From a bacterium (GTDB lineage: Bacteria > Elusimicrobiota > JBDRMW01 > JBDROU01), in the NCBI GenBank assembly GCA_043809745.1, contig JBDROU010000046.1:1733-65732 (forward strand): 64,000 nt of DNA, read 5' to 3'. Each line of letters opens with the position of its first letter. Position 1 is the first letter of the stretch. The position numbers and the translations under genes were made by a program. The notes under the pieces were generated by a model. The model was not told the origin of the DNA and ran no database searches. It was given only the letters and a program-made list of their open reading frames with translations. Below are positions 11,334 through 52,698 of the stretch, piece after piece.

Positions 11334-11334
11334 T

Positions 11335-12787: not shown

Positions 12788-12790
12788 GAA

Positions 12791-15741: not shown

Positions 15742-15875
15742 CAGTTGAATAAACTAGTGGCACCCCCCACATCTATTTAATTTTTTTACAACTGAAGAAT
15801 AGGAACAAATATGGAAGTTGCTTTAATCTACTATTCTTCAATCTTTTAAACTGTCAATCTGTCATCAACGTCCCC
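15720..15875. repeat. Long-range imperfect inverted repeat with a nested hairpin at the 3' end of the T2SS operon. Outer 27-nt arms GGGGACGTTGTTTACAGATTGACAGTT / AACTGTCAATCTGTCATCAACGTCCCC; inner TGAAGAATAG / CTATTCTTCA
   Basis: Arms at 15720-15746 and 15849-15875 (25 of 27 complementary). Inner arms at 15793-15802 and 15831-15840. The left arm overlaps the gspM stop. Confidence 0.5.
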
Positions 15876-15937
15876 AAAATATTTTACAATAACTTTACAG
15901 CGAATTTTACATACTTGTGGTATACTTAATTAGGCCT

Positions 15938-17029
15938 ATGAATAGATTTATACGTCTAATTATTACTATATTTCTTTTATTCCAGATACCAGTTCAATCT
16001 TGGAGCAGGACTATGCTTGCTCCCCCGCATTCAATGGAACTAATTCGCAAAAAACAAGTGCAATCCTATCAAAATGCAGTACGGGATTTTATCCGGAAGC
16101 AATCGCAAATTTATGCCTGTGCAGCTGCAAAGAATATTTACCAGCTAAAAATATTAAATTTGCCAAACACTACAGCTAGATTATCAAATATACAAACAAA
16201 TATTCGTTCTCTTACACCAGAAAAACTTCTAGCTAAATTTATGGATTATGCTCAAGAAAAAGGCGGAGGAAATTACAAATCTTTGGACCCCAAAAATTTT
16301 GATCCTGGAGATTTTCAGGACTTTATAGGAAATAAATTTATGGTTCTTGATAATATTTTTGAACTGCTTAAGCTACATATTGAAAATAATGACCAGGATA
16401 AGATTGAAGATAAATTTTCTAAAATATGCAATTATTATGAGCTAATTTCAATTGTCTTAGCCAATATTTTAGGCATAGAGGAATTTTCCACCATCTTCCA
16501 ATCGGCAGAATGGCTGGAAGAAATTCAATGGTACAAGGCCATTTTAAGCAAAACAACCAACCAAACATCTGAGGTTAAAGATTATTTAAAAGAACTTCAA
16601 AGTAAATTCACAGCTGCAGATGAGGAAATACTCGGAATGGATAATGAACAATTAGAAGAGGAATTTAAAAGAATTAACGAAGGTTATAATGTGCCAGATT
16701 ACTCTCATAAATTGTCTTATGAATTTGATTACCAAGAATTTTACGATTTCTGCTCGAATATAGGAGTAGGTACTGTTATAATGATCTTTAGTGGGTTTTA
16801 CGATAAGCTTTTACGTGGAGAACAAATAAATTTAATTTACTTTAACAAAATAACTCTAAATCTGCCTGAATATTACAGAAAAGGCATGATTCTTTTGTGC
16901 TGTTTCATTGGTAAAGATTTAGTTTACCCAAACAAGGGGGTCGTTGGTGGGATAATTAAACTTCCCCAACCTACAAAACCAGCTATTGAACAAATTGATA
17001 ATCCCTCATACTATGAAAACTCTTTATAG
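15938..17029 (+). CDS. Hypothetical secreted alpha-helical protein (candidate T2SS substrate)
   Basis: Signal peptide 'MNRFIRLIITIFLLFQIPVQSWS' then 'RTMLAPPHSMEL'. No family recognised. The track ORF begins at GTG 15917; the ATG at 15938 gives a canonical n-region. Confidence 0.5.
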   Translation: MNRFIRLIITIFLLFQIPVQSWSRTMLAPPHSMELIRKKQVQSYQNAVRDFIRKQSQIYACAAAKNIYQLKILNLPNTTARLSNIQTNIRSLTPEKLLAKFMDYAQEKGGGNYKSLDPKNFDPGDFQDFIGNKFMVLDNIFELLKLHIENNDQDKIEDKFSKICNYYELISIVLANILGIEEFSTIFQSAEWLEEIQWYKAILSKTTNQTSEVKDYLKELQSKFTAADEEILGMDNEQLEEEFKRINEGYNVPDYSHKLSYEFDYQEFYDFCSNIGVGTVIMIFSGFYDKLLRGEQINLIYFNKITLNLPEYYRKGMILLCCFIGKDLVYPNKGVVGGIIKLPQPTKPAIEQIDNPSYYENSL

Positions 17030-33303: not shown

Positions 33304-33766
33304 AATGGGAGAAGTATCGGTACACCGAATTCTGTCCTCAATAATAAATATTGAGTGGAGATCATTAAACTAAGACCTAAACTTCAGGCCTTCGTCAATC
33401 TTAAACACTTGCATGTTTAAAATCCAACGTGCGATAAACCTGAAAGGTTTCCAAATCTCTTTGGAAAAGGAAAGAGCATCCATCCTTTCACCTAATTTTA
33501 TCTTGCTCCCTATGGGGTTTGCCGTGCCCTCTCGGTTACCCTTGAGGCGGTAAGCTCTTAACTCACCTTTTCACCCTTACCCACCTTTAAAACGGCGGGC
33601 GGTTTATTTTCTGTGGCACTTTCCGTATTCAAATTCCCCAAAACCTAGATTCTGGAAAAATATTGAATCCCTAGATTAACTCTAGGCATAGCGCTCTTAG
33701 GAGTTCGGACTTTCCTCTCTAAAACACAGTTGTTCTAGAGCGATCCCCTGATACATTCTCCCATTC
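33304..33766 (-). ncRNA. rnpB: RNase P RNA (bacterial type A)
   Basis: Minus-strand sequence contains 'GAGAGGAAAGUCCGAAC' (P4/CR-I), 'AGUGCCACAGAAAAUAAACCGCC' (cf. E. coli GUGCAACAGAGAGCAAACCGCC) and 'GGUAAGGGUGAAAAGGUGAGUUAAGAGCUUACCGCC' (P10-P12 region). P1 pairs 33750-33765 with 33304-33319. There is no long ORF in this region. Confidence 0.85.
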
Positions 33767-34970: not shown

Positions 34971-35042
34971 TGGGCAATGTAGGGATTGAACCTACGGCCT
35001 TTCGCATGTGAAGCGAACGCTCTACCACTGAGCCAATTGCCC
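34971..35042 (-). tRNA. tRNA-Val (anticodon CAC)
   Basis: Minus-strand 72 nt folds as a cloverleaf: acceptor GGGCAAT/ATTGCCC, D-arm GCTC-AGTGGTA-GAGC, anticodon arm TTCGC-TTCACAT-GCGAA, T-arm GTAGG-TTCAATC-CCTAC, discriminator A. No CCA is encoded. Confidence 0.85.
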
Positions 35043-35845: not shown

Positions 35846-36844
35846 TTATTCTGCCGGGGTGCTTTTTTTGTCTTTCTTCGGTGTGCCGAATCTGCAAAGT
35901 AAGCTTACTCTATGCGACCCGGTTGTTTCTAGAATCTCCAACGGCCATATAAACGCGTAATCTATCTGTATGCCAAAGTCACCTGTATCAAACAGATAAC
36001 CCAACCCTAATGTTAACTCCCTGGTATTTCCTCCCAAACGAAGCCCCATAACTTTATCAAAGAAGAAGTTTTCCCATCCTAAATGAACATTTAGATCATC
36101 GTCCCTGTATGTAAGATCGACCGCGGCTAACGCTTCAGTCAGCAGCCATATATCCCCAAACAGATAACAGAATCCTAATTTATATTCTCTCGGAATCCTA
36201 TCAGTCTCAAGCAATCCTATATCGGGTTCATTAAGCATCTTAACGCTGAATCCAACACTCTCTGATTCAAAATTAGCCAGTACGCCTAAATCAACCGCAA
36301 GAGCACTGCTATACCTGCCTTTGGCAAACACAGGATCAGATCTTGTACGATCATCAAGCGTATAACCGTTGCGCAGGAATTTAATATTACCGCCTATATA
36401 TATATCCGCATTTACTTGCTGATAGACATCCAGATCATGAGCATAGTTTATTGTTGCCGTATCCTCCCTATAGAGTCCGTTAGCTATAAAGTTAGCCCAG
36501 CTTATACCCCAGGCTCCGCCGTTATCCATTGGATGAGCATACGCAAAGTAATTTAACCCCAGTTTTACCGCGGACAGCCCTGTATAAAGACGTGAGTACA
36601 TGAAGCTGCCCTCAGGCCGCTCAAGCTGGCCGATACCTGCAGGATTATAAAGTATGGAATTCACGTCATCCGCAACCGCGGTAAAAGCGCCGCCCATTCC
36701 CGCGGGCCGCGCGCCCCACCCGGAATCTTTGAACGCGCACCATACCGGCGGCGAAATCAAAAACAAGACGCTTAAGATTCCTAGAACCTTTATAATTTTT
36801 CTATGAATTTTGAGTTTCATGCTAACCACGTCCTTAAAAACCAC
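35846..36844 (-). CDS. Outer-membrane beta-barrel protein, FadL/OmpP1/PorV-like (possibly a PorP/SprF-type partner of the adjacent CTD protein)
   Basis: Signal peptide then 'GWGARPAGMGGAFTAVADDVNSILYNPAGIG', which matches the N-terminal motif of FadL/PorV-family barrels (..GRA.sG.GA.ADDA....NPA). Beta-rich with an aromatic C-terminal region. 332 aa is shorter than FadL proper. Confidence 0.5.
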   Translation of the reverse strand: MVFKDVVSMKLKIHRKIIKVLGILSVLFLISPPVWCAFKDSGWGARPAGMGGAFTAVADDVNSILYNPAGIGQLERPEGSFMYSRLYTGLSAVKLGLNYFAYAHPMDNGGAWGISWANFIANGLYREDTATINYAHDLDVYQQVNADIYIGGNIKFLRNGYTLDDRTRSDPVFAKGRYSSALAVDLGVLANFESESVGFSVKMLNEPDIGLLETDRIPREYKLGFCYLFGDIWLLTEALAAVDLTYRDDDLNVHLGWENFFFDKVMGLRLGGNTRELTLGLGYLFDTGDFGIQIDYAFIWPLEILETTGSHRVSLLCRFGTPKKDKKSTPAE

Positions 36845-36848: not shown

Positions 36849-38138
36849 TTATTTTGCTACAGCAATCACTCCGCTTATTAATTCATTATCGACCTTTAGC
36901 TGATATATATATACACCATTTTCCACACGGCTGCCATCATCATCCCGTCCATCCCATTCATGGGGCTGACCCCGAATAGTGCGAATCTTTCTTCCTGTTA
37001 CATCAAATATATTAATATTAATATTTCTGTCAGCCAGACCGTCAAACTGAGCAAAATCATTGTATCCGTCGCTGTTTGGTGTTATTATACGTTCCTTAGG
37101 CCTGTATACGCTCGGCCCCAAAGCACCAAGAGGAAACACACCATAAATGCCAAACCGATTAATTGAAGTGCTTATAAGATTTTTTTCAGTATCTATAACT
37201 CCGCCAACCAGACGCCATTCAAAACCATCCCACCAGCAGATTTTCAAATCAGTTTCTTTAAATCCGGTATAATCTTCTATACCGAAGGGTTCAACGGTAT
37301 CGTAATATAACAGAGTCAGCTTGGCTTGCTTTTGAAGCGCGGTATTGTTCGGGCCGAGTTCATATACCATCACTGGCGGCAATCCGCCTATTCCCGCGCC
37401 ATAAATCAGCGATTCGGCATTTTTTAAAATTCTCAAAGTTAAATCAGTCTTGCTCTGAAGAGCCCCGACAGGCAAATCCAATGAATTTTCACCATCAAAA
37501 GGATTAGCATCAGGGAATATAACCATACCGCCTGAAGCGCTCGCGGATCTAGTTATTTTTCTGCTGATCATTATTGATATATACTCCAACTGCTTTACCG
37601 AACCGCCTGACTGCCCTAAATATTGAATGTTGTTTGAAGCATCCTCAACAGACAGATAGAAATTTATACCCGGCTCTTCTACCATCACTCTCGGAATTTT
37701 AACCTGCCAGGAAAATTCTTTTATGCCTTCGCCTAAAGGGCCCAAAGTAAAGGTCTGCGTCATATTAGCTGCAGCACCTTTACTCTTTCCTGCAATCGAA
37801 GGTGCCCCTGATTTTGATTGTTCTACAGCTAAATTACCATTGCTGGCAACCAACTCCGCGCCCAAAAGTGATTTGTTATCGGATAATGATATGTCTAATA
37901 TAATTTCGTTTACCAGTACACCCTCTTGGGGTATGCCTGAAACACTGACCAACGGAAAGATCGGATCTTCATGGCCCAGCGGAAACAAGACTCCCTCTGA
38001 TATGATAAAACCGGCAGTAAAAGTCAACTTCTGGAGAGATTGAAAATCTCCATGCAATCTAGCATTATTCATAAAGAAAATAATTACAAACGCGACCGAA
38101 GCTGCGGTTATTTTATTCATAATTGTTTTTTTATGCAT
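36849..38138 (-). CDS. Secreted protein with a C-terminal T9SS type-B-like / CHU_C sorting domain
   Basis: Signal peptide. C-terminus 'ITPNSDGYNDFAQFDGLADRNININIFDVTGRKIRTIRGQPHEWDGRDDDGSRVENGVYIYQLKV' matches the TPNGDG.ND ... F.R.G..V ... WDG ... G.Y.Y type-B C-terminal domain. It ends 4 nt before the barrel gene. Confidence 0.55.
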   Translation of the reverse strand: MHKKTIMNKITAASVAFVIIFFMNNARLHGDFQSLQKLTFTAGFIISEGVLFPLGHEDPIFPLVSVSGIPQEGVLVNEIILDISLSDNKSLLGAELVASNGNLAVEQSKSGAPSIAGKSKGAAANMTQTFTLGPLGEGIKEFSWQVKIPRVMVEEPGINFYLSVEDASNNIQYLGQSGGSVKQLEYISIMISRKITRSASASGGMVIFPDANPFDGENSLDLPVGALQSKTDLTLRILKNAESLIYGAGIGGLPPVMVYELGPNNTALQKQAKLTLLYYDTVEPFGIEDYTGFKETDLKICWWDGFEWRLVGGVIDTEKNLISTSINRFGIYGVFPLGALGPSVYRPKERIITPNSDGYNDFAQFDGLADRNININIFDVTGRKIRTIRGQPHEWDGRDDDGSRVENGVYIYQLKVDNELISGVIAVAK

Positions 38139-38157: not shown

Positions 38158-38913
38158 CTACTTTACTACTTCGCCGTTTTCATCTATCTTGAACCTGCAG
38201 GAATCTTTTAATACCATCCCTTTATGTAAAAGATTTACTTCAAATTTTGCGGTATACCTGCCTTTATCCAATAACATGTCATCCCACCTGGCAAAAAATG
38301 CCCTTTCCTGATTAGGATATACCGGCCAGCCGTAAGAAATAGGGACCGTTTTAACAACCTTTTTTCCTTTTAATACAGTTACTTTTCCCGTAGGTCTAAT
38401 ATGAACATTCCCTTCATTTTTCAGAACTACAGCAGCAGTGTACCCATCTTTCTCTCTACGTACAACACTTTTAGCAATTTCGACTATAGGTTCTTCTGTG
38501 CCTTCAATAAAAACATATAGAGAAACACTCATCATTACGATAAGCTGTGCTTCAGATATTGTTGGCGTAAAAGATATTTTTTCAGCCAACTCGCCCTTTG
38601 CTTCCTTAGGCACCTTAATCTTATATTTAACCACTCGAACTTCATTTGACTTTAAGTTAAATACAGGCGGATCAAAAGACAACCAATCCTTTGCCTCTAT
38701 ACCCTTATTATCTTCCAAAACAAACCAATCGTTTACCTCAATAGCAACTTCCATATCGGAATCTGTAATGTTCTTAACCGAATACTCACCCGCGTATTCG
38801 CCTTCGGGAGGTATTCTCAACTCCAATCTCAAAGGCGATATCTCCAGTTGCTGTGAAGCAAACAGCGATAAAGAACAGGATATCAATATAGTAAAAATTA
38901 ATAATTTTTTCAT
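38158..38913 (-). CDS. Periplasmic hypothetical protein, possibly PapD/MSP-like beta-sandwich (chaperone-like)
   Basis: Signal peptide. 'LEISPLRLELRIPPEGEYAGEYSVKNITDSDMEVAIEVNDW' loosely resembles the PapD N-domain pattern. No usher gene is present. Overlaps the upstream GH gene by 4 nt. Confidence 0.3.
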   Translation of the reverse strand: MKKLLIFTILISCSLSLFASQQLEISPLRLELRIPPEGEYAGEYSVKNITDSDMEVAIEVNDWFVLEDNKGIEAKDWLSFDPPVFNLKSNEVRVVKYKIKVPKEAKGELAEKISFTPTISEAQLIVMMSVSLYVFIEGTEEPIVEIAKSVVRREKDGYTAAVVLKNEGNVHIRPTGKVTVLKGKKVVKTVPISYGWPVYPNQERAFFARWDDMLLDKGRYTAKFEVNLLHKGMVLKDSCRFKIDENGEVVK

Positions 38914-41900
38914 GGCACAAAAAACTCCAATATTAACTTGGTTGTTTTATACTCATTGGGTGTTGAAGCCCTTTTGAAATCAGCCGCAATGTAAAGATAG
39001 TTAGGTGAAGTTGCCAAACCATGCTCTAAAGCTTGTCCTCCAAACTGAATACCTTCATTATCCCATATGGTCTGGTAATAATCACCATTAATAAAAGCTT
39101 CGTTTAAATCTGTTTGGGGATTATCTTTTGTATTAATGTCTTTGAACCATAAAAAGCCGTTCTCAAAATAAGAACTGTTTGTTGCTAGGTCAAGCCTCTG
39201 GTCGGGGATTTCCACCGGCACAACTTCCAGTTCATCAGTTATCTTCCAGCAAACAGGCAGTTTAGCCATAGAATTTGCACTTACTATCCCTGACGGATCT
39301 TGTATATTGTCCAGATCACCGGGATCTAAAGGGTATGGCGGCGAAGAATTTACATTATCGGTGTAAATCTGAATCCCCCAGGTAAGAGCTCCAGGGTCAG
39401 TTTCAATTTGAATATACTGGTTTGCAACAGTCCATGCAGAAGTCATCGTACTATTCCAGGTAATCTCATCTGCTTCTAAGTTATCGCTGACATTCTTTAT
39501 CGTGAATTTAACTGCATTGGGATTCCAAAGATCCATAAGCATATTATATGCTTCCCTAACCTCCCTGTAACCTAAAGGGGAGCTGTTGGTTTTTGTAATA
39601 CCCCACCACTCCTCATTCATATTATTCCCGCCGGCATCAAATGTATAGAATAGGTTTGTCCAATCACCCGTTTCATCATGAACATTTATATCACCGGAAC
39701 TTTTCCACCACTCATCAACCCATTCAAACACACAACCGCCGGCGCATACTTTACCAATATTGTCTTCACTTAAGTTTGACGAAATCTCTGCCCACTGCTG
39801 CTGTATATAACTGGCCTGTATGCTCTGAACCTCTTCTTTCGTTATATTATTCAGCCGGTCGCAGCCGAACTCGGTAATCACCAGCGGCTTGTCAGATTTA
39901 GCCGCGTAATTAGTAAATGAAGTCAGAAAAGAAGGGCCGTAATAAATATTCACCGACCAAAGATCTGGATCAGCAACCGCTTCATTTACAAATGATACTT
40001 CAGTAACAGATGTTGAAACCGGGTGTGAGACAACACCTTCTTCCGCATGAGCAGCTGAAACACAACTATTAAAGAAAGTATACCACCCATTAACATCCCC
40101 TGTTTGCTTGCTCACTTCATTACCAAGCTGCCAGAACAAAACAGCAGGATGGTTTTTGTACTTGTTCACGATATTTAAAAAGTCATCGCGGATAGGGTCG
40201 GTTTGCACCGGATTACCCCAATTCGTATTGGGATCAACACTGTGATTAATAATCACAAATAAACCCAGCTCATACAAAACATCTAAAGCAGGGAAAGGCC
40301 CGCCGGTTTGAGCCGGATAAGGATCCGCGAACAATCTTATGGAATTCGCTCCCATTACTTTTATCAAATTAAAATCCGTTTCATAAATATCCGGATTGTT
40401 AGCCCAATCATATCCAAATGTAAAACCGGGAGGCACCGGAGAATAATTAACACCCTTAACCGTAAATGGCTGCCCGTTGACTATAAGCCTGTAACCGTCA
40501 ACATTCACTGAAGCTGCACCTGTCTGTGTGGCTTCTACCTCAATTCGGACATTATCTACATAAAACTTCAAGCCGTTATAAACATCGGGATTGACCATAG
40601 TATCATCCCATGGACTTATAAGAAAAACTATGTCTGTTTTAGAAAAATCCAACCAATCAAACTCAAACGAAGATAAGGGAATGGAAATCTCATGCCACTC
40701 ATTTCTTACGACACCGGTATTATCTCCCTTCATCGGATAGCCGAATAGGCTCACACGTTTTTCCGGACTTTCTATGAAAATTCCCGGATTAAACCTATCC
40801 TCAGCTTTCATTTTAATAACAAAATCCCTAACATAAACATTCGGGACCACATCTCCGACCAAAAGCGAAAATTTCAGTTCACCGGATTTAAAATCTGTGA
40901 GATCAACCGGATCATTCGGCTGAATAAATATGCCGCCGTAATTTGCAGTACCCACTATAATCTCTAAACAATTATCTCCTTCAGGCATAACGGAGCCTAC
41001 ACCAGGCACGATTGTTACGGTATTAGCTACAGGTCCGCCAAAAGCAGGGTCCGGAAAGACTCTTAATTCACTTGAAACAGGAATACCAACATCGCTTAGT
41101 ATGTTATATTTAAAAATCTCAGTAGCAGAATTTACAAAAATCGGGACTGTGTCTGAACCTCCTCCTTGAGCTGCCGTAAGGAAATCAGATCCTATGGTAT
41201 TAGCAGTAACAGAAATAGAAGCCCCTGTTGCAGGATTAATTGATGCTAACCCGTTTATGACCGACCAGGAGGGATTAGCTGAAACCAGCTCATTGTTGAT
41301 GTCGAAACCCCAGGCTTTAAAATCTTTAGATTGACCCGGCGTAAAATATCCCCTCCCCGGAATTATAACAATATCAGTTGGAGATCCCAGATTATAAGAA
41401 GAATATCTTAAATCATCTATATTAAAACTCAGTCCCTCAATGACGCCGGAATATGGAGGTTGGGTATCATTGATAATGTAGAAGAATGAATGTATACGAG
41501 TAAAGTTTACGCCTGTAAAATGCGCCAGCGGTATAGAAATCTGGCGCCATACATTGTCGTCCCTAACACCATAATCGTATAATCTAAGGTTTTTTTCTTG
41601 TATAGTACCTGAAAGATTTTTGCTCTGTATGCCGATTTTAAGCATGCTGACATTATCCAGCGTGTGATGGAGGTCAGACTTAACCCAGAACTTTATGTAG
41701 CTATAAGCTGACATATCCTTAATATCCGATAATTCTTCCGTTCCGTTTCCGTTAGCATCGCTTCTAACAGCCATGCCGAACCAGGTTCCTCCGCTTATAT
41801 TTACACCTTTGAAGCTATGTCCTCCCTGCATATAATCGACATTATCACCGGTGGTATATGCGCTTGTTACAAGATTCCACCAAAACTGAAACTGAGCATT

Positions 41901-42053
41901 TGCTTCTGGCCCACCTAGAATTGCGCCGGCATGTCCGCTGCTCAAGACACCATAATTATCAGCAAATGCAATACTTATTAGAGGGGAATAAAAAAAACCT
42001 AACCCCAGAATTAGCCAAAAATAACGGATTTTATTACGGGTGTAGGTTTTCAT
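38910..42053 (-). CDS. Large secreted clan GH-A (TIM-barrel) glycoside hydrolase with an unknown N-terminal region and an unknown ~220-aa C-terminal domain
   Basis: Signal peptide 'MKTYTRNKIRYFWLILGLGFFYSPLISIAFA'. Central 'VKGVNYSP...ANSIRLF...FWQLGNEV' (acid/base NE) and 'PLVITEFGCD' (nucleophile TE.G) are GH-A hallmarks (GH2/GH5-like). C-terminus '...LYIAADFKRASTPNEYKTTKLILEFFVP' is homologous to the 42279..43025 protein. Confidence 0.65.
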   Translation of the reverse strand: MKTYTRNKIRYFWLILGLGFFYSPLISIAFADNYGVLSSGHAGAILGGPEANAQFQFWWNLVTSAYTTGDNVDYMQGGHSFKGVNISGGTWFGMAVRSDANGNGTEELSDIKDMSAYSYIKFWVKSDLHHTLDNVSMLKIGIQSKNLSGTIQEKNLRLYDYGVRDDNVWRQISIPLAHFTGVNFTRIHSFFYIINDTQPPYSGVIEGLSFNIDDLRYSSYNLGSPTDIVIIPGRGYFTPGQSKDFKAWGFDINNELVSANPSWSVINGLASINPATGASISVTANTIGSDFLTAAQGGGSDTVPIFVNSATEIFKYNILSDVGIPVSSELRVFPDPAFGGPVANTVTIVPGVGSVMPEGDNCLEIIVGTANYGGIFIQPNDPVDLTDFKSGELKFSLLVGDVVPNVYVRDFVIKMKAEDRFNPGIFIESPEKRVSLFGYPMKGDNTGVVRNEWHEISIPLSSFEFDWLDFSKTDIVFLISPWDDTMVNPDVYNGLKFYVDNVRIEVEATQTGAASVNVDGYRLIVNGQPFTVKGVNYSPVPPGFTFGYDWANNPDIYETDFNLIKVMGANSIRLFADPYPAQTGGPFPALDVLYELGLFVIINHSVDPNTNWGNPVQTDPIRDDFLNIVNKYKNHPAVLFWQLGNEVSKQTGDVNGWYTFFNSCVSAAHAEEGVVSHPVSTSVTEVSFVNEAVADPDLWSVNIYYGPSFLTSFTNYAAKSDKPLVITEFGCDRLNNITKEEVQSIQASYIQQQWAEISSNLSEDNIGKVCAGGCVFEWVDEWWKSSGDINVHDETGDWTNLFYTFDAGGNNMNEEWWGITKTNSSPLGYREVREAYNMLMDLWNPNAVKFTIKNVSDNLEADEITWNSTMTSAWTVANQYIQIETDPGALTWGIQIYTDNVNSSPPYPLDPGDLDNIQDPSGIVSANSMAKLPVCWKITDELEVVPVEIPDQRLDLATNSSYFENGFLWFKDINTKDNPQTDLNEAFINGDYYQTIWDNEGIQFGGQALEHGLATSPNYLYIAADFKRASTPNEYKTTKLILEFFVP

Positions 42054-42278: not shown

Positions 42279-43025
42279 TTACTGCCAGAACAACTCCATC
42301 GTTAGAGTGTTGGTCTTATACGTGTTTGGAGTTGATGCGTTTTGAAACTTAGCGGCTAAGTATACAAATGCTGTATTATCAGCCGGTTGAAAATAATCAA
42401 ATGTAGCTTCCGCATGGTGAATTCCGCCATACTGATTCCAAACTGTAATATAATCCTCACCGTCAAGAAACGCGGTTGATCCGCCTACAGCCAATGTGGC
42501 TCTATCCTTCATCCACAGAAACGGGTAGTAATCTGCCGCGAAACCATCTAGTGTAAGATTGTTTGTAGCATTTTGAGTAATATTAAGAGCATCTGTTGTG
42601 TCGTCAACCACTCTCCAGGCTAAAGGCAGCATTCCCGCATTCGGATTATCAACAGTCAACAAACCGGCAGGATTGATATCAGCCGGATCTCCAGTAAACT
42701 GAGGGTTTGCTATAGCACTCGTGTTGTTTGTGAAAATCTGGACTCCCCAGCCCGATCTGTTATAAGTGTTGGTGACTTCCAAGTACTGATCTGCGGCCTT
42801 CCAGTCAGTGACCCCAAGAGTAACATCACTCCAGCTCAACTCAGTAGTTGCGGCATCACCTATCCTATTGCGGATTACAACACTCAAAGTTCCGCTGGGT
42901 GCTTCATTGAATACCACGCTGGCAGTGTTAGTCGATCTCAATATTGGCGTAAACGCTGCCAATAACGCGCTTGGTAAAGCAGCTACAAAAGCAAACAAAC
43001 TAACTAAGAAAAGTAACTTCTTCAT
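42279..43025 (-). CDS. Secreted stand-alone paralog of the C-terminal domain of the 1047-aa glycosidase
   Basis: RBS AAGGAGGA, signal peptide 'MKKLLFLVSLFAFVAALPSALLA'. 'WGVQIFTNN...LPLAWRVVDD...VYLAAKFQNASTPNTYKTNTLTMELFWQ' aligns with 'WGIQIYTDN...LPVCWKITDE...LYIAADFKRASTPNEYKTTKLILEFFVP'. Confidence 0.6.
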   Translation of the reverse strand: MKKLLFLVSLFAFVAALPSALLAAFTPILRSTNTASVVFNEAPSGTLSVVIRNRIGDAATTELSWSDVTLGVTDWKAADQYLEVTNTYNRSGWGVQIFTNNTSAIANPQFTGDPADINPAGLLTVDNPNAGMLPLAWRVVDDTTDALNITQNATNNLTLDGFAADYYPFLWMKDRATLAVGGSTAFLDGEDYITVWNQYGGIHHAEATFDYFQPADNTAFVYLAAKFQNASTPNTYKTNTLTMELFWQ

Positions 43026-43422
43026 TTAACTATCCTCCTTAATAATTATTTGTAATTTCACTTCTAAAAACTAAACTTATCCCCCCTTTCATAATATAAT
43101 ATTCTGTATTTCTTTACTATAGTGTACAATAGCGATATTAAGAAAATGTAAAAAAATTGTAAAGTTTTTGTAAAATCTAAAATAACGAAAAACCAGGCCC
43201 AAACATTTTTATGTGGTTGAATCAAGTTTAAATGGGAAGCAGCATATCCTAAAAATACAGGGAACCACATAAAAATAACTTATGTTCTTATAAGATCTCT
43301 ACTACACTCGGCAGGTCTATTAAAATGATCTTTTGGAACCTTAATTATAGTTAATTTAGCTAGGAAGTGTCAAGCATTTTTGATTCTAATTTTAAGCATT
43401 TTTTAGGGAACCCAGAGAAGCT

Positions 43423-45301: not shown

Positions 45302-47077
45302 TTACTTTTGTTCCAAATTAAGAACCGTTAAGAAAGCCTCCTGAGGCAACTCTACATTTGCAAATTGCTTCATTTTCTTCTTTCCCTCTTTTTGTTTTTC
45401 CAGTAATTTCCGTTTTCTGCTGATATCACCGCCGTAGCATTTTGCTATAACATCCTTGCGTAAAGGCGGAATGTTCTCCCTTGCAATGATTTTATTATTG
45501 ACTCGCGATTGAATAGCTATCTGAATCATCTGTCTGGGGATTACTTCTTTAAGCCTTTCTACAAGTTTCTTGCTTACATAATACGCCCTCTCCTTGTGTA
45601 CCACGCTTGATAATGCATCTACCACCTTGCCTTGAACTAAAATTTCAACTTTCATCAAATCGCTTGGCTTCCAACCGCTATGCTCATAGTCGAGAGAAGC
45701 ATAACCCTTAGATATTGATTTTAACTGGTCATAGAAATCAACTATAACCTCCCCCAATGGCAGTAAATAATTAAACATAAGCTTTTTGGATGTGATATAG
45801 TGCATCTGCTTCATCTGCCCCCTCTTCTCCTGGCACAACTGCATAACTCCTCCAACAAACTCTTTCGGCGTTATAATACGGGCCGCTATATACGGCTCAT
45901 CAACAGCCTCCACCTTGCGCGATGGGAAATTAGCCGGGTTTAATATCTCTTCAATCTCATCGTGTTCATTTAATATCCTGTAAACGACGTTAGGAGCTGT
46001 AACAATTATCTCAAGCTGAAACTCTCTCTTTAACCTTTCCTTTATTATATCCATATGCAGTAATCCGAGAAAACCGCATCTAAAACCAAAACCCAATGCC
46101 TGGGATGTTTCTGGTTCGAAATGAAACGACGAATCTGAAAGATGCAATTTGTCAATAGCTCCCCTTAAGAAGCCGTAGTCGGCCGGATTTATTGGATATA
46201 ATCCAACAAAGATATACGGTTTCAACTCTTTGTAGCCGGGATGAGGCTTTTTTGTTGGATTTTTTACCGTTGTAATTGTATCACCGATCTTAACCGCATG
46301 TATATCCTTGATGCCTGTAACCAGAAATCCAACCTCTCCTGAAGTCAATATTTTGGAACTCACCATCTTCGGAGTCAGATAACCAACATCAATGCACTCA
46401 ACCTCCAATTTTGAAGACATCATACACAGTAAATCATTCACTTTCAGCGTACCTTCCAGTATCTTTATATAAATAATCACACCTCTATATGGATCGTATA
46501 ATGAATCAAATATCAAGGCGGATAAAGGAGCATGCGAGTCCTGCTTATATGGAGGTATTTTTTTAACAATGGCCTCTAAAACCTTTTCAACACCCTTCCC
46601 CTCTTTCGCGCTGACGAGAATCGGCTCCTCGCCTAAATGCAGGACTTCCTTTAATTGAACTTTAACTCCTTCAGGATCTGATGCAGGAAGGTCAATTTTA
46701 TTAATTACCGGGATTATAGTTAGATTCGTCTCCTGAGCCAGATAAGCATTTGCAACTGTTTGCGCCTCAACACCCTGTGTTGCATCCACCACTAATATTG
46801 CCCCTTCACACGCAGCAAGCGCCCTGCTTACCTCATAAGTAAAATCTACATGACCGGGTGTATCAATCAAATTAAGAATATACTTCTTCTTATAGATCAT
46901 GCGAACCGCTTTAGCCTTAATTGTGATACCGCGTTCCCGCTCAAGTTCCATATCATCCAAAACCTGGTCGCGCATATCTCTTTTAGAGACAGTACTTGTT
47001 AACTCAAGCAAACGGTCAGCTAAAGTGGACTTCCCATGATCGATATGCGCTATTATAGAAAAATTTCTTATTTCCAA
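45302..47077 (-). CDS. lepA: Elongation factor 4 (LepA)
   Basis: 'IRNFSIIAHIDHGKSTLADRLL', 'DTPGHVDF', 'NKID' and a LepA C-terminal domain. Confidence 0.95.
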   Translation of the reverse strand: MEIRNFSIIAHIDHGKSTLADRLLELTSTVSKRDMRDQVLDDMELERERGITIKAKAVRMIYKKKYILNLIDTPGHVDFTYEVSRALAACEGAILVVDATQGVEAQTVANAYLAQETNLTIIPVINKIDLPASDPEGVKVQLKEVLHLGEEPILVSAKEGKGVEKVLEAIVKKIPPYKQDSHAPLSALIFDSLYDPYRGVIIYIKILEGTLKVNDLLCMMSSKLEVECIDVGYLTPKMVSSKILTSGEVGFLVTGIKDIHAVKIGDTITTVKNPTKKPHPGYKELKPYIFVGLYPINPADYGFLRGAIDKLHLSDSSFHFEPETSQALGFGFRCGFLGLLHMDIIKERLKREFQLEIIVTAPNVVYRILNEHDEIEEILNPANFPSRKVEAVDEPYIAARIITPKEFVGGVMQLCQEKRGQMKQMHYITSKKLMFNYLLPLGEVIVDFYDQLKSISKGYASLDYEHSGWKPSDLMKVEILVQGKVVDALSSVVHKERAYYVSKKLVERLKEVIPRQMIQIAIQSRVNNKIIARENIPPLRKDVIAKCYGGDISRKRKLLEKQKEGKKKMKQFANVELPQEAFLTVLNLEQK

Positions 47078-48819
47078 TTTGATCTAGCAACTCCCCTTTT
47101 GACAACGCGCGATATAGAATCCCTATCGCTCAACCGCATTATCTCTTTTACTAATTCCTGTGATTTGCGAAAGTTCGATGTGCGAATAAAACTCTTAATG
47201 CGCGGCACATCAACCGGAGATATGCTCAACTCGTCCAAACCCAATCCCAACAATACTGCATTTAAGTTCGGATCGGCCGCCATCTCACCGCACATGCCTA
47301 CCCATTTCCCGGCAGCGTGTGTTGAATCCACCACAAATTTAATCAAACGCAATATAGAAAGGTTTAACGGATCGTAAAGTGTCGCAACATCTTCGTTAAC
47401 TCTGTCCACTGCAAGTGTATATTGAATTAGATCATTTGTGCCAATTGAGATGAAATCTGATTCCTTTGCCAAAATGTCTGTTATCAAAGCGGCACTGGGT
47501 ACCTCAATCATGATCCCGATCTCGATATCACCGTCAAAATCAATTCTTTCTCTGGTTAGCTCAAGCTTAACCTCTTTCACTAACTCCTGAACCTGTCTTA
47601 ACTCTTCCAGGGTGCTAATCATGGGAAACATCATCTTTACCTTTCCTTCTGATGATGCGCGCAGTATAGCCCGAATCTGGGGTTTAAGCAGTTCTGGGTG
47701 GTGCAGACATAAGCGAATTCCCCTCAATCCCATAAATGGATTACGCTCCTGCTTTCCAACTCCGTATCCCTGCTTTGCCAATTTGTCACCACCCAGATCC
47801 AATGTGCGGATAATAACACTATAAGGAAGCAGAGATTTAACAACATTAGTATAATGCCTGTATTGTTCCTCCTCTGTTGGAAGCGAGTTTCTGTCTAAAA
47901 ATAAAAATTCTGTTCTAAATAATCCGACGCCCTCTGCCCCATGCGATAGCACTGACTTTACTTCATCTGAAGAATCAATATTGGCAGCCAACACTATTCG
48001 GTGTCCATCAACAGTTTGAGCAGGGAGGTCTTTTAACTTCTCCAACTCTCTTAATTCTGCCATATGTATCTCTTTTGCCCTTCTATAGCTGGAGATTGTA
48101 TCCCTATCCGGATTTATAATAACCAATCCCGCATTACCGTCTATAATCACATCATCACCGGATCTAATAAATTTGGAAATGGCTTTTAATCCAACAACAG
48201 CCGGTATCTCTAAGATGCGGGCAACAATAGCCGTATGAGAAGTTTTTCCTCCAATATCTGTTGCAAATGCCTTAACCATCTGATCACGCATATGAACTGT
48301 ATCCGAAGGACTTAAACTGTGGGCTATAATGAGAACCTCATCTTTAAGCTTGGTCATATCTTTCTTCTTTCTGCCCAATAGGTTCTGCATTATTTTCTTT
48401 CCGACATCTATTACATCATTCTTTCTTTCTCTAAAATACTCGTCATCAAGTTTTTCGAACTTTTTAACAATCTTATCAATACTCTGCTTTAATGCATATT
48501 CTGCCTTTACCCACTCACGGTTTATAGTCTGGATTACATCTTCAGTCAATATTGGATCGCTTAATATAAGCAAATAAGCTTCTATAAGACGAGCATGGCT
48601 CTTTCCAAGGGTTTTAAGTATTTTTTCCTGGGTTTGCAGCATCTCATTTTTTGTTTTGCTTAATGCAGTCTGAAAACGCAATATTTCATCCTTAACACCG
48701 CTCCTTTGCACTGTTGCTTCCGGGAAGTAATCGCTCTCTTCTTCAATAACAAATGCCTTACCTATAGCTATACCTGGGGAAGCAGCTATGCCCTTAAATA
48801 CACTTTTCTTTTTTTCCAT
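47068..48819 (-). CDS. ptsI: PTS Enzyme I (phosphoenolpyruvate-protein phosphotransferase)
   Basis: 'GGKTSHTAIVARILEIPAVVG' (His carrier), a PEP-utilising C-domain 'GMCGEMA', and the EI N-terminal HPr-binding domain. Confidence 0.9.
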   Translation of the reverse strand: MEKKKSVFKGIAASPGIAIGKAFVIEEESDYFPEATVQRSGVKDEILRFQTALSKTKNEMLQTQEKILKTLGKSHARLIEAYLLILSDPILTEDVIQTINREWVKAEYALKQSIDKIVKKFEKLDDEYFRERKNDVIDVGKKIMQNLLGRKKKDMTKLKDEVLIIAHSLSPSDTVHMRDQMVKAFATDIGGKTSHTAIVARILEIPAVVGLKAISKFIRSGDDVIIDGNAGLVIINPDRDTISSYRRAKEIHMAELRELEKLKDLPAQTVDGHRIVLAANIDSSDEVKSVLSHGAEGVGLFRTEFLFLDRNSLPTEEEQYRHYTNVVKSLLPYSVIIRTLDLGGDKLAKQGYGVGKQERNPFMGLRGIRLCLHHPELLKPQIRAILRASSEGKVKMMFPMISTLEELRQVQELVKEVKLELTRERIDFDGDIEIGIMIEVPSAALITDILAKESDFISIGTNDLIQYTLAVDRVNEDVATLYDPLNLSILRLIKFVVDSTHAAGKWVGMCGEMAADPNLNAVLLGLGLDELSISPVDVPRIKSFIRTSNFRKSQELVKEIMRLSDRDSISRVVKRGVARSNWK

Positions 48820-48849
48820 TATAATCCTCCGCTATTTGAGTTTTTTTAT

Positions 48850-49116
48850 TCACTCTTCGCCAAATTTCGAATCGAACAACCTTTCCAATTCCTCAATTGC
48901 AGCTTGTTCGTCTTCACCATCTAATAGTATCGTGAGTTCAGAAAGTTGTTCAGCGGCAAGCATGAGTATGCCCATTATGCTCTTGCCATTAACCTCCTGA
49001 TCACCCTTTATAACTTTTACCTCTGATTTAAATTTATTTGTAGTTTGCACAAGAAGGGCAGCTGGACGGGCATGAAGTCCCAATTTGTTTTTTACCTGTA
49101 ATATTTTTTCTATCAT
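48850..49116 (-). CDS. ptsH: Phosphocarrier protein HPr (carries both His15 and Ser46)
   Basis: 'GLHARPAA' (His15 site) and 'NGKSIMGILML' (Ser46 site for HprK). The track ORF's first 11 aa are an over-extension. Confidence 0.85.
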   Translation of the reverse strand: MIEKILQVKNKLGLHARPAALLVQTTNKFKSEVKVIKGDQEVNGKSIMGILMLAAEQLSELTILLDGEDEQAAIEELERLFDSKFGEE

Positions 49117-49919
49117 TATAATAATCCTATCGCGGTCAGAATGACACATAAAACCAGACCACTTATAAATATTTTTATTGTGGATTGCTCCAATATTTTT
49201 AAGCTGACAAACAGAATCAAAAACAACGCGCTGAAAAGCTTTAGTTTAACAGTTGGAACATTACAAATAATAAAGAATAAAATGAGAAAAGATGTTATTG
49301 CCAAACCTATCAAACATAACACATGATGAATCTTTGCCAAAGGTATTTTCTTTAAATACTGCAAAACAGCTTCCTTGTAACGTATACCGGCTGCTCCGCA
49401 TAAAAAACGCACATTTAAGGTTACGCTATTATACAAAAGTAAATAGAGTATAATTGACAAAACTATATAATTTGAAGTAATATTCTTAAAACAAACAAAA
49501 AATAACATACATCCGATTATAGAATTAAACGGCCTTAAACACCCCCAAATAAAACTATCTCCTATAGCAGCTAGTGAGGATGAAAGATATTTTTTTATCA
49601 TAGGAATCTCTTTATCCATATTCCTTTCTGAAGTTAAACTGCTTTCCTCTTTATCTATTACAAGCGCTGCGACAAGAGGGACCAAATATGGGTTAGTGAC
49701 AAAATAATCAAGATGTCTGGTAATTGCAGCGTTCAACTTTTCCGAATTCTTACTATAAATCTTTGTAAGAAAAGGCAGGATAGTAAAAGCAAATCCAATA
49801 TTTTGCAGCCCTTCTCTATTCCAATATGCCTGTATAAAAAATGAACGAAAGAAAAGTATCCAAGCCTTCTTTAATTTAAACAACGAAGCAAAATCAGCAA
49901 GTTTTGAATATATTGTCAT
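49116..49919 (-). CDS. PTS mannose-family EIID component
   Basis: 'FFRSFFIQAYWNREGLQNIGFAFTILPFLTKIY....LNAAITRHLDYFVTNPY' matches the EIID-Man N-terminal consensus. Multiple TM segments. Confidence 0.75.
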   Translation of the reverse strand: MTIYSKLADFASLFKLKKAWILFFRSFFIQAYWNREGLQNIGFAFTILPFLTKIYSKNSEKLNAAITRHLDYFVTNPYLVPLVAALVIDKEESSLTSERNMDKEIPMIKKYLSSSLAAIGDSFIWGCLRPFNSIIGCMLFFVCFKNITSNYIVLSIILYLLLYNSVTLNVRFLCGAAGIRYKEAVLQYLKKIPLAKIHHVLCLIGLAITSFLILFFIICNVPTVKLKLFSALFLILFVSLKILEQSTIKIFISGLVLCVILTAIGLL

Positions 49920-49942
49920 ATCTGTTCTCACTACGAGCAATC

Positions 49943-50575
49943 TCACCAAACTCTTATTTTTTTAAACTTATCTAAATTAAAGGCAATCACAAGGCTCAGC
50001 AAAGGCAAAAAAACATCAAAAGCGATAAACCCATTTAGAATCATATCCGGTAAAAAAGTAAAAATTATATCTCTTAAGAAACATGCAAATCCCAAGGATA
50101 AAGCAATAAATACAAAATTACGAATTACAATAATAATAATATTCCCAACAATTACACCTGTAACCGCTCGATCAAGATGCTTATATATTGCCTGGAAATA
50201 ATCAAAAAATATAGACGACTTCTTTTTAAACCAAAGATCATATACATGGAAACTCATAGCAACAATAAAAGCGAAGAGTATTGCAATTGTCTTATTATGA
50301 ACAACCGGAGATGCAACTCCTATAAAAAAAACTCCTGCTGTAATTGAAGACATAATCGCGGCATCTAATGGAATAACAACTCCCAAAGGAAGCATATCGA
50401 TGCATATAAGCTCCAGGATAACACCCAAAGTAAACCCTTCAACAGGGGCATTGAAGCAAAATCCAAATACTGTTAAAAGAACCAGCGGCCTTGAAAGCAA
50501 CATCTGTCCTACAAATGTAACGTCTAGCGAAAACACCGAACCGATTAATGAAATTAATAATATTTGTTCAACCAT
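49943..50575 (-). CDS. PTS mannose-family EIIC component
   Basis: Polytopic membrane protein immediately upstream of EIID. The ATG at 50575 overlaps the upstream GH57 gene's stop; the track's TTG at 50626 gives an N-terminal extension. Confidence 0.65.
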   Translation of the reverse strand: MVEQILLISLIGSVFSLDVTFVGQMLLSRPLVLLTVFGFCFNAPVEGFTLGVILELICIDMLPLGVVIPLDAAIMSSITAGVFFIGVASPVVHNKTIAILFAFIVAMSFHVYDLWFKKKSSIFFDYFQAIYKHLDRAVTGVIVGNIIIIVIRNFVFIALSLGFACFLRDIIFTFLPDMILNGFIAFDVFLPLLSLVIAFNLDKFKKIRVW

Positions 50576-52688
50576 TGGCAAGTGTGGAAGCCGAAATTCT
50601 CCATTCCCATAAAAATGAAGAGTCAATATCTAAACCAAACTTACAGTGGGGAGTAATACTTATTCCCTGAAAGGTTTTCTCAAAACCATCTTCAGATTGT
50701 GATACAGTTTCTATAGGGAACTGCCATATATTTACTAAATTATTAAAACACATTTTTACCTGCGTATTTTTTTCAGCGGCGTTCCACAAAAACTCATTTG
50801 AAAATAACTCTTTTTTCTCTTTATATTCGCTGCCAAGCAGCAAATTTAGCTCAACTCCAAACCACAAGTCTACTTTTTGCTTACAGCAGTTCTTTATTGT
50901 ATATAGTACCTTAACCTCACTATCAGGTAAAAATTCAAACCTTTTGCTTACAAATATAGGACAATGGCAGTCTCCTACCCAAACATTCCCTCTGTTTGAC
51001 AGCTCTAATATGATATTACTATCCTTTTCCTCATGTACGCTCCATTTATATTGGGCGAGCACAAAATCCCCCTGCTCCCCGTACTGACTTTTTTCATACT
51101 CATCAAGCCTGGCAAATGGATGGAAAAAGTGATCCAAAAAAGTCAATCTATCGTACCAATCATAAAATAAGCTTTCCTTCAAATCACTTTGCTTAGTTTT
51201 TACTAAACCATGTATAGTTTTAACTTCACCATCTCCCTTATTCTCGCCTTTATCCACAACAACAAGTTTTTCTAACTTTTCATGGTATGCTTCTTTACGC
51301 CTAGTAATCACATTTGTAAGATTTACAGAGTTAGGTTTATAATCCCATTCTATAACAGATCCACCGCGATGAGGAGCAAAATAGAAATTCTGCTGCTTAC
51401 CTTCAATAAGGACCTCCTCAAAACCATCACAATTAAAGTCTTCTATTAGATGCCAGTAATTCTTGCTTTTTGAAGAAGCTATCCCATTATCCGTTAAGCT
51501 TTCTGCTTTTATCAGGTTGCTGTATATGGCCTCCCTAAGATGAGGAAGATACAATCCTCCAAAAACACCATGCCAGTAAGCGCAGTTGCATTGTCCGGCC
51601 CATAGATGGTTGACAGCATCCGAAATAAAATTCTTGTTTCCTTCAACTGATTCAAGCTTATGGACCTTTTGGCTTACCAAAAGCATTTTTTTGTGCATAG
51701 CATTTGATTCAGGATATTTATACAAAAAATTTCTCCAAAGCGCGCCGCGCAAAAATGACATATCTTCTTCTGACATGTCGTTCATGTTCATACGCTTCAA
51801 AAAATGCTCAAATTTTATTTCCATATCCGAGGGCAGCGTCCACTCGGACATCTCAAAATAAGAAGCTGTTGGTATATAAAGCATACCCTTGCCGGGAAAA
51901 GACTTTGAAAAATCGCTGAATTTCCAGGTCTTTATCCATTCCTGGTTTTCATCGAGTAGAGTAAAGAACTTATCCAGCCATCCTTTTTCGTACACATGCT
52001 TATAAGTCCCAGGCCAAAGCCCAAACTTCTCCCCATCATCAGCCATTACAAGAAGTCCCTGATCATGTTTTTCAGCGTACTGCCTGAAATAATCAATGCA
52101 TTTTTCCGCAGTACTGAATGGTATCATGTACCTTAACATTTTGTTAATTGGGAACAGTTTGACAGTAACTCCTTGTTCCTCAGTTACAAAATAACCTGTC
52201 AATTTATCACATGAAATTCCTGCTGCCTGAAAATGCGCATCATCCAGAATGGTATACTCTACACCGGCCTCAGCTAATACCTTGGGAAGGTGCGGTTCCC
52301 ACACACGTTCTGTTAGCCAAAGACCTTTAGGCATAAATCCAAAACAATCTTTAATAAACTTACTTTGTTTTTTTATTTGACCTATCTTATCGCTATCCGG
52401 AAGCGAAGAAAGTATCGGTTCATAATATCCGCCTGTTAGAAGCTCAAGCCTTCCCGTGGAAACCATATTTTTAAGTTTCGCAAGAAACTCAGGCTTATAT
52501 ACTTTTAGCCAATCAAACAAAACCCCGCTAACATGCAGATTCCAGTTTATACGCGGATGCTTCTCCAGAACCTCTAATAAAGGCTGGTATGAACTGGCAA
52601 AAGCTTTTTCCAGGACCTCACTAAAATTACCGACAGGCTGGTGGTTATGGATGCCAAAAATAAAATTTACTGTTCCCATATTTGACAA
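50568..52688 (-). CDS. GH57 4-alpha-glucanotransferase (Thermococcus-type)
   Basis: 'NFIFGIHNHQPVGNF...WLTERVWEP...GVEYTILDDAHF' is near-colinear with the N-terminus of characterised GH57 4-alpha-glucanotransferases (HxHQP motif). Confidence 0.8.
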   Translation of the reverse strand: MSNMGTVNFIFGIHNHQPVGNFSEVLEKAFASSYQPLLEVLEKHPRINWNLHVSGVLFDWLKVYKPEFLAKLKNMVSTGRLELLTGGYYEPILSSLPDSDKIGQIKKQSKFIKDCFGFMPKGLWLTERVWEPHLPKVLAEAGVEYTILDDAHFQAAGISCDKLTGYFVTEEQGVTVKLFPINKMLRYMIPFSTAEKCIDYFRQYAEKHDQGLLVMADDGEKFGLWPGTYKHVYEKGWLDKFFTLLDENQEWIKTWKFSDFSKSFPGKGMLYIPTASYFEMSEWTLPSDMEIKFEHFLKRMNMNDMSEEDMSFLRGALWRNFLYKYPESNAMHKKMLLVSQKVHKLESVEGNKNFISDAVNHLWAGQCNCAYWHGVFGGLYLPHLREAIYSNLIKAESLTDNGIASSKSKNYWHLIEDFNCDGFEEVLIEGKQQNFYFAPHRGGSVIEWDYKPNSVNLTNVITRRKEAYHEKLEKLVVVDKGENKGDGEVKTIHGLVKTKQSDLKESLFYDWYDRLTFLDHFFHPFARLDEYEKSQYGEQGDFVLAQYKWSVHEEKDSNIILELSNRGNVWVGDCHCPIFVSKRFEFLPDSEVKVLYTIKNCCKQKVDLWFGVELNLLLGSEYKEKKELFSNEFLWNAAEKNTQVKMCFNNLVNIWQFPIETVSQSEDGFEKTFQGISITPHCKFGLDIDSSFLWEWRISASTLANG

Positions 52689-52698
52689 TAGCTAGAAA

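Follow-up and report, generated by a model that had tools for sequence, protein, structure and literature searches.

Why should a secreted glycosidase end in a domain that the next gene upstream encodes again as a protein of its own? The question is raised by a 64,000-nucleotide stretch of DNA from a bacterium of the Elusimicrobiota (GenBank assembly GCA_043809745.1, contig JBDROU010000046.1, positions 1,733 to 65,732 of the forward strand), which we call the window and number from its first letter. We propose that the shared domain serves for docking or assembly in a cell-envelope complex that displays enzymes, that a WxLIP-like protein encoded alongside binds and completes it, and that the free and fused copies form a platform; we put the probability of this reading at roughly 50%. 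The docking interpretation is drawn from genomic context, the decisive evidence here, because domain genes adjoin a homologue of WxLIP in 13 of 14 loci. Four features carry the argument:

38913 to 42053, minus strand: open reading frame (ORF) of a secreted glycosidase of 1047 amino acids.
38913 to 39500, minus strand: C-terminal copy of the domain, ~197 amino acids ('fused' subtype), residues 852-1047 of the glycosidase, delimited by BLASTP and the family hidden Markov model (HMM).
42282 to 43025, minus strand: free secreted paralogue of 248 amino acids ('small' subtype), consisting of a signal peptide, a ~25-residue N-terminal extension and the domain.
38161 to 38913, minus strand: p251, a secreted 251-residue homologue of WxLIP (DUF916+DUF3324) with two immunoglobulin (Ig) domains and no transmembrane (TM) helix.

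BLASTP aligned residues 51-246 of the free protein with residues 852-1047 of the glycosidase (82.8 bits, E = 5e-22, 29% identity, 51% positives). The family HMM scored the free protein at E = 1e-83 and the glycosidase C-terminus at E = 5e-59, so that a chance resemblance between the two is excluded. A preliminary description of this DNA had already aligned the end of the glycosidase with the free protein; the alignment is confirmed, and the sequence blocks quoted there (WG[VI]QI[FY]T[ND]N, LP.xW[RK][VI] and Y[LI]AAxFxxASTPNxYKTxxLxxE[LF]F) all fall inside it. The duplicated unit is real but smaller than described, at ~197 rather than 220 residues, and it does not take in the entire mature free protein. 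Left outside are the first ~25 mature residues, an N-terminal extension that has no counterpart in the glycosidase and that reads KSTxTAxVxFTxxPSG in consensus among free members. Besides these two copies, no further copy of the domain was found in the 64-kb window. The fused copy shares 44-46% identity with its fused counterparts in three other loci (L001, L004 and L005) and only 27% with its own free paralogue. On sequence grounds, the free and fused copies are two old, orthologous subtypes kept across loci. The free protein is recorded publicly as a hypothetical protein.

The stop codon of the glycosidase gene and the start codon of the p251 gene overlap as ATGA (38910-38913), which suggests that translation of p251 is coupled to that of the glycosidase. 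The alignment of p251 with canonical WxLIP covered both Ig domains in the same order (hhalign probability 97.8%, E = 1.2e-12, 219 columns). The canonical set comprised WxL clusters from plasmids of Enterococcus, Lactiplantibacillus and Levilactobacillus and, from a plasmid of Clavibacter, a DUF916 gene. PF06030 (WxLIP_PGBD, formerly DUF916) was matched by 6 of 11 p251 homologues, with a best E of 1.3e-7, and the best PDB sequence match of the p251 profile was EfmWxLIP1 (9i1y). Judged by this alignment, p251 is a homologue of canonical WxLIP over both Ig domains. The idea that p251 is a lipoprotein was rejected, since homologues do not conserve the L-I-S-C of its signal peptide.

Two further genes follow p251 and complete a cassette of five:

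36852 to 38138, minus strand: p429, a secreted protein of 429 amino acids with a type-B sorting domain of type IX secretion systems (T9SS) at residues 350-419 (window 36882-37091).
35849 to 36844, minus strand: p332, a PorP/SprF-PorV-like outer-membrane beta-barrel of 332 amino acids.

The five cassette proteins were mapped onto all fetched loci by tblastn, blastp and HMM searches, and the counts cover loci with adequate flanks. At least two domain genes lay beside one p251 homologue in 13 of the 14 loci (the window, L001, L004-L011 and L020-L022); one of these, L022, was found independently by starting from p251. The order free gene, glycosidase-fused gene, p251, CHU_C protein (the p429 type) and PorP-like barrel is common to the window, L001 and L004, and in L005 it is unchanged as far as the CHU_C protein, at which the contig stops. 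Two elusimicrobial loci vary the theme, L006 as free-p251-free-p251-fused-CHU_C-PorP and L020 as free-free-p251-fused-CHU_C-PorP, and L008 and L009 read free-p251-free with the PorP-like gene farther downstream. Three Omnitrophota-type loci (L007, L011 and L022) have, in place of the CHU_C/PorP-like pair, a PKD protein of ~850-900 amino acids and a GspC-like protein of ~230 amino acids (T2SS-C/PDZ, after the type II secretion system, T2SS). As mapped over these loci, the domain genes and the gene of the WxLIP-like protein form the core of the cassette, and the module for export or anchoring can be exchanged.

The domain family extends well beyond these loci. An exhaustive HMMER search of metagenomes with a 30-sequence profile, with representatives clustered at 50% identity, returned 873 representatives at E <= 1e-3, of which 317 reached E <= 1e-30; a word-indexed search had turned up no more than 9 relatives (29 when a profile was used), none of them named. 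Every public name among family members is 'hypothetical protein'. Among the top 172 representatives, 132 are free, 35 carry the domain C-terminally and 5 carry it N-terminally, directly after the signal peptide. Free members measure 230-300 amino acids, and C-terminal carriers measure about 400 amino acids, with a domain resembling a carbohydrate-binding module (CBM) plus this domain, or 650-1480 amino acids; those among the top 172 extend to 1478. Large members carry cargo related to carbohydrates (GH2_C/GH72-like barrels, CBM11/CBM30-like, SGBP-like, fn3 and Ig domains). Hosts among species-representative genomes are Elusimicrobiota/Endomicrobia, Omnitrophota, Firestonebacteria, Goldbacteria and two metagenome-assembled genomes labelled Clostridia, and no homologue was found on sequenced plasmids. 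In the N-terminal carriers, a third subtype, the tail of the domain is followed by a conserved G[IV]SPFPxYxYKD and then by 200-750 further residues. It was seen in three Omnitrophota-type loci:

L007, 9923 to 15358: stretch with the N-terminal-domain subtype and the PKD/GspC-like pair.
L011, 3884 to 10477: stretch with the N-terminal-domain subtype and the PKD/GspC-like pair.
L022, 7413 to 14200: stretch with the N-terminal-domain subtype and the PKD/GspC-like pair.

A patch of ~150 nt in the free gene of L001 (8432-8581) shares 88.7% DNA identity with the fused C-terminal domain encoded at 9074-13057 of the same locus. It encodes the loop 'NCAADANPQFYIVNPSSVNPAGL(V/L)ATD', and nearly all the remaining DNA of both genes was left unaligned by blastn. 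The patch is spread as a mosaic (free and fused genes in L001, free only in L004, fused only in L005), a pattern resembling gene conversion between paralogues, here of a surface loop.

A small free protein and a large C-terminal carrier, kept together across phyla and nearly always with a WxLIP homologue, make up the architecture of the Gram-positive WxL/Csc surface clusters, and on that account the anchoring or scaffold logic of the preliminary description is supported. In WxL clusters, the small protein consists of a signal peptide and the domain only, the large protein always has its domain C-terminally behind functional modules, and one WxLIP is present, often with an LPXTG protein as well (PMC9772566; PMC10599100; PMC1534035). 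Operationally, such a cluster needs one or more WxLIP and two or more WxL proteins (PMC10599100), and 13 of the 14 loci fit it with this domain in the WxL slot. The likeness to the WxL/Csc clusters of Lactobacillales and Bacillales covers the small domain-only protein, the large C-terminal carrier, the single two-Ig WxLIP-type protein, here a true WxLIP homologue, and the typical 2:1 ratio. Small and large WxL domains are reported to be distinct (PMC9772566), as the two subtypes are here, and the carbohydrate cargo parallels the proposal that Csc clusters form a 'carbohydrate utilisation surface complex' for plant polysaccharides (PMC1534035). The cassette differs in having no LPXTG protein or sortase and, instead, either the CHU_C and PorP/PorV-like proteins or the PKD and GspC-like proteins. 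Its hosts are diderm candidate phyla and not Firmicutes, the source of >91% of WxL sequences (PMC9772566), and the second Trp-x-Leu motif is missing from the domain. Where canonical WxL domains have GW[ST]L and LTW[NVL]L, the first site is here a nearly invariant W93-G94-[VI]95 (W-x-V/I) and the tail reads L-T-[MVLI]-E-[LFA], with no Trp. We propose that the domain may serve as the functional and architectural counterpart of Gram-positive WxL in double-membraned uncultured bacteria.

The two genes at the end of the cassette resemble a different surface system. p429 matched CHU_C (PF13585; 1.2e-11, 45 bits against a cutoff of 27) and TIGR04131 (37.5 bits against a cutoff of 35), and has homologues in L001, L004, L005, L006, L020 and L021. 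p332 matched Pfam PorP_SprF (PF11751; 1.9e-9, 37.9 bits against a gathering cutoff of 22.3) and fell below the NCBIfam cutoffs for TIGR03519 (the PorP family; 41.3 against 90.55) and PorV/PorQ (58.5 against 90); by these scores it is a member of the PorP/PorV superfamily, with no finer subfamily placement. Its homologues are in L001, L004, L006, L008, L009 and L020. Surface anchoring of cargo whose C-terminal domain (CTD) is of type B by a neighbouring PorP-like protein is a known pairing (PMC9143113). As in SprB-SprF and PG1035-PorP, a protein passing TIGR04131 is followed immediately by the gene of a PorP/PorV-like barrel (PMC9143113). Unlike those pairs, the hosts lie outside Bacteroidota, and the likeness concerns p429 and p332, not the domain.

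The docking reading can be set out in four steps. All five cassette proteins have visible Sec signal peptides and would be exported by Sec. p251, coupled to the glycosidase through the ATGA overlap, would bind the domain in the free protein and in the glycosidase alike. It would probably do so by adding a beta-strand that completes the sandwich, in the way that AlphaFold2 (AF2) predicts a hairpin strand of WxLIP to complete the beta-sandwich of WxL (PMC10599100). Free and fused domains would then form, with the WxLIP-like protein, a heteromeric platform bearing CBM and clan GH-A cargo. Lineage-specific modules would hold this platform at the surface; here these would be the type-B-CTD protein and the PorP/PorV-like barrel, the genes for which are present, and in some Omnitrophota-type loci PKD and GspC-like proteins would do so instead. 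The net function would be the display on the cell of polysaccharide-binding and -degrading modules.

The preliminary description had drawn a parallel with cohesin-dockerin and SLH modules, which stands as an analogy, in that enzymes would be held on a cell-bound scaffold via a dedicated non-catalytic module. It does not extend to sequence or fold, as cohesin structures reached only E about 0.9 and a TM-score of about 0.2 in Foldseek. Unlike in the cohesin-dockerin system, both partners here bear the same domain, and a third, WxLIP-like protein is nearly always present.

Several observations weigh against the docking reading. What WxL and WxLIP do in Firmicutes is, for the most part, itself a matter of prediction and not of demonstration. 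In one endomicrobial locus (L012) the domain is present with no p251 homologue within 10 kb. p251 lacks a C-terminal TM helix, ending ...KIDENGEVVK at residue 251, and its close homologues (247-269 amino acids) have no hydrophobic tail; canonical WxLIPs measure 338-360 amino acids, with the helix at the end. In the hhalign alignment an 11-residue gap falls at NQIDKxxxYFDLK, of which only 'LELRI', the equivalent of 'FDLKM', is left. Because the helix and part of this motif are absent, the role of p251 may differ from that of WxLIP. With regard to passage across the outer membrane, no T9SS core genes were found among the ORFs scanned in the 64-kb window, the glycosidase and the free protein carry no T9SS CTD, and T9SS is regarded as a Bacteroidota/FCB trait. 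Nor did the domain itself resemble WxL in direct comparisons. Pfam WxL (PF13731) was matched by 0 of 30 members at E <= 10. In hhalign, the 30-sequence profile aligned with six canonical WxL sequences over its last 12 columns only (YkTn-LtvEL / Y-T-TLTWxL, E = 0.14), and a 172-sequence profile gave E = 0.09-0.76 against WxL, CscB-like proteins or both. The solved WxL structure 9i25 lay outside the top 50 Foldseek matches.

These comparisons bear on a further possibility, that the domain is an extremely diverged true WxL domain that binds peptidoglycan, in which case the complex would be periplasmic, on the sacculus, and not at the surface. The partner is, after all, a WxLIP homologue, and all cassette proteins carry only Sec signals. 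Local echoes of WxL can also be read in the domain, where 'Y[LI]EVTxxxxxxGWG[VI]QI' recalls 'YVQVTDxRGxxxGWxLxV' and the tail 'YxTxxLT[MVL]EL' recalls 'YxTTLTWxL'. The tail is the only segment that hhalign aligned; such echoes prove nothing. The profile-profile tests were negative while their positive control succeeded (three CscB-like 'hypothetical' proteins against Enterococcus WxL; hhalign 81.7%, E = 1.1e-5), the second Trp is absent, and a 1047-residue multi-CBM glycosidase next to a type-B-CTD/PorP-like pair points to the surface rather than the periplasm. We regard a peptidoglycan-binding WxL domain as highly improbable. By sequence the domain is not WxL; it is an analogue, or else a homologue too far diverged to be recognised. 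An apparent enrichment of WxL/CscB ORFs among weak HMM matches was discarded, having been traced to signal-peptide and N-terminal composition.

WxLIP-type genes were also met away from the domain. On a Clavibacter phaseoli plasmid (NZ_CP040796.1; L014, 2764-11460), a DUF916 gene (WxLIP_PGBD, 1.6e-8) lies between two GH43 genes and also adjoins a gene for a 208-residue hypothetical protein without a Pfam match; this may be another non-WxL partner system of a WxLIP-type protein linked to glycosidases. A divergent neighbourhood in Logan SRR31189232 (L013, 497-9790) has two WxLIP_PGBD-like genes (355 and 340 amino acids), a sortase gene and several Pfam-less secreted proteins, without recognisable WxL proteins. 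An unannotated segment (102149-102283) of CP069367.1, a plasmid record labelled Klebsiella pneumoniae, matches part of Enterococcus faecium WxLIP1 (PDB 9i1y sequence) at 95.6% identity; such a match is odd in Klebsiella, and the record may be mislabelled or chimeric.

Is the fold of the domain informative about its role? The AF2 model of the free protein (predicted local distance difference test, pLDDT, 74.3; predicted template-modelling score 0.72) is all-beta with 13 strands, and models the N-terminal extension at lower confidence than the core. As modelled, the shared ~200-residue unit is a previously unannotated beta-sandwich domain, and possibly a new fold. Pfam gave zero matches in the domain region of 30 members, with matches to CBM30, CBM11 and Exop_C confined to N-terminal modules, NCBIfam has no model matching the domain, and PDB sequence searches (phmmer, and hmmsearch with the profile) came back empty for it. 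Foldseek comparison of two AF2 models with the PDB yielded nothing significant (best E 0.04-0.06, TM-score about 0.3-0.46). With hhalign, the domain showed no relationship to p251, to the PorP-like barrel or to the N-terminal part of p429 (E 0.02-0.13). The earlier statement that no known domain is recognised therefore holds across all these searches, and since none placed the domain with confidence in a known CBM or Ig-like family, the earlier reading is not overturned.

One earlier suggestion did not survive, namely that the conserved tail of both copies might itself be a sorting or anchoring signal. Tail residues Y236, T238 and E244 are invariant, and the tail forms the last beta-strand of the predicted sandwich (pLDDT about 86). 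A C-terminal sorting signal was rejected on account of the 200-750 residues that follow the tail in the third subtype; because the same motif is internal there, the tail needs no free C-terminus.

The top Foldseek matches of both models were fibre proteins, TasA fibre (8aur), PapE (1n12), CfaB (4y2l), FimA, FimI, PapA and CanA (E 0.04-0.4, TM-score 0.26-0.46), that is, donor-strand-complemented subunits at non-significant scores. They recall a chaperone-assisted, pilus-like fibre, in which the free protein would be the polymerising major subunit with its N-terminal extension as donor strand, the glycosidase would sit at the tip, and p251 would be a soluble periplasmic chaperone that uses strand complementation to cap subunits. 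The extension is conserved, limited to free members, built of alternating hydrophobics (A-x-V-x-F) and less confidently modelled than the core, all of which would agree with a donor strand. Mature p251, with about 230 residues, two Ig domains and no TM or lipid anchor, resembles PapD-type chaperones, and one of its homologues has been named 'P pilus assembly chaperone PapD' by JGI. The free gene comes first, behind a long leader of its own and a strong promoter-like site, and in L006 every free gene has a p251 gene of its own after it.

In this respect the cassette shares with chaperone-usher pili (FimC/PapD, FimA/PapA, FimH/PapG) a soluble two-Ig partner, beta-sandwich subunits, a free subunit with an extension, and a 'tip' protein made of a functional part and a C-terminal subunit domain without the extension. 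However, every fold match is non-significant (E >= 0.04), neither PapD_N nor PapD_C was matched by any of 11 p251 members at E <= 1, and no usher-sized outer-membrane protein (an usher has ~800 amino acids) is present, the only barrel being the 332-residue PorP/PorV-like protein. The domain, at ~200 amino acids, is also about 50 residues larger than chaperone-usher pilins (~150 amino acids). We consider a fibre of this kind unlikely.

Weak and likewise non-significant Foldseek matches included legume-type lectins and GH11/GH12 jelly rolls. The beta-sandwich is rich in conserved aromatics (W65, W75, Y81, W93, W137, W171, Y192, Y222 and Y236), and the domain is joined to glycosidase and CBM-like modules. 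All this would be in keeping with a new carbohydrate-binding module of lectin or CBM type that targets the glycosidase to its glycan, the free copy being a glycan-binding protein, either soluble or on the surface, and the neighbours co-functional rather than physical partners. Set against it, the domain region gave no CBM match from Pfam or the PDB, CBMs do not normally come with a dedicated gene for a two-Ig partner, as the domain does in 13 of 14 loci, and the ancient split into free and fused copies, with a near-constant 2:1 ratio to p251, better fits protein-protein assembly. A purely glycan-binding role is decidedly unlikely in our estimation, and we retain docking to p251 as the preferred reading.

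If the docking model holds, the domain becomes a new Pfam-level family, hundreds of 'hypothetical proteins' gain a role, and poorly known candidate phyla gain a testable mechanism for displaying polysaccharide-degrading enzymes. WxLIP would be recast as a general strand-donating adaptor rather than a binder of Gram-positive peptidoglycan or of the host. WxL/Csc is regarded as a trait of thick-walled Firmicutes; here a WxLIP homologue is paired with a different, unannotated family of at least 873 clusters. This coupling spans Elusimicrobiota, Omnitrophota, Firestonebacteria, Goldbacteria and related uncultured diderms; the cargo consists of glycosidases and CBMs, and the accessory genes are of T9SS or T2SS type. 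No report linking DUF916 or WxLIP to these phyla was found in the literature searched; as far as that literature and the sequence searches reach, the family appears unannotated and WxLIP-type clusters outside Gram-positives appear not to have been described before.

A bolder idea, which we think unlikely, is that diderm candidate phyla build, from this cassette, a chaperone-assisted surface structure of a new class that lacks an usher. A novel beta-sandwich subunit of ~200 amino acids would polymerise or form a platform by strand complementation, with a soluble, WxLIP-derived two-Ig protein as periplasmic chaperone or adaptor, glycosidase and CBM tips joined via this domain, and interchangeable modules for passing the outer membrane and anchoring there. 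If that were true, the Gram-positive WxL/WxLIP system would be one branch of wider, ancient strand-complemented envelope assemblies.

The cargo and the gene layout in the window add three features:

39501 to 42053, minus strand: cargo part of the glycosidase, with Sec signal peptide, CBM-like repeats and a clan GH-A TIM barrel.
39801 to 40520, minus strand: the clan GH-A TIM barrel (residues 512-751), with GNE and TEFG catalytic-type motifs.
43344 to 43373, minus strand: sigma-70 promoter-like site TTGACA-18-TATAAT, found by consensus match (12/12), ~320 nt upstream of the free gene.

The assignment of the 1047-residue protein as a glycosidase holds. Its barrel matched Glyco_hydro_2_C (residues 516-751, E = 1.6e-10) and GH72 (8e-8) in Pfam, beta-glucuronidases (2e-8) and beta-galactosidases (about 1e-8) in the PDB, and NCBIfam models as well. 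The N-terminal repeats resemble those of ~400-residue family members that match CBM30 and CBM11. Because the spacings from the glycosidase to p332 are only 0-19 nt, including the ATGA overlap (p251-p429 19 nt, p429-p332 4 nt), the glycosidase, p251, p429 and p332 genes are assigned to one operon. The free gene is separated from the glycosidase by 225 nt, in which no terminator-like site was found, and the position of the promoter-like site implies, if it is used, a long leader for the free gene. A 179-residue, Ser/Thr/Ile-rich ORF on the plus strand (38438-38977), antisense to p251 and the 3' end of the glycosidase gene, is most likely spurious. In L020 (Elusimicrobia JAPLKM010000006.1, 15552-21272), a giant-protein gene lies just downstream of the cassette and was called at 11,756 residues, beyond the end of the locus.

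Farther downstream of the cassette, on the minus strand of the window, are a class A RNase P RNA (33305-33760, 202.6 bits) and a tRNA (34971-35042). A glycogen/alpha-glucan set with phosphotransferase system (PTS) genes comprises two GH57 genes and GH77+GDE (1550-4468), with the range 47068-54453 on the minus strand also given. A type IV pilus/T2SS-like gene set occupies 4980-17029 on the plus strand and includes a PilB/GspE ATPase (7937-9649) and a PilN-domain protein (13763-15202); this resident T2SS-type machine could be relevant to the export of the cassette proteins.

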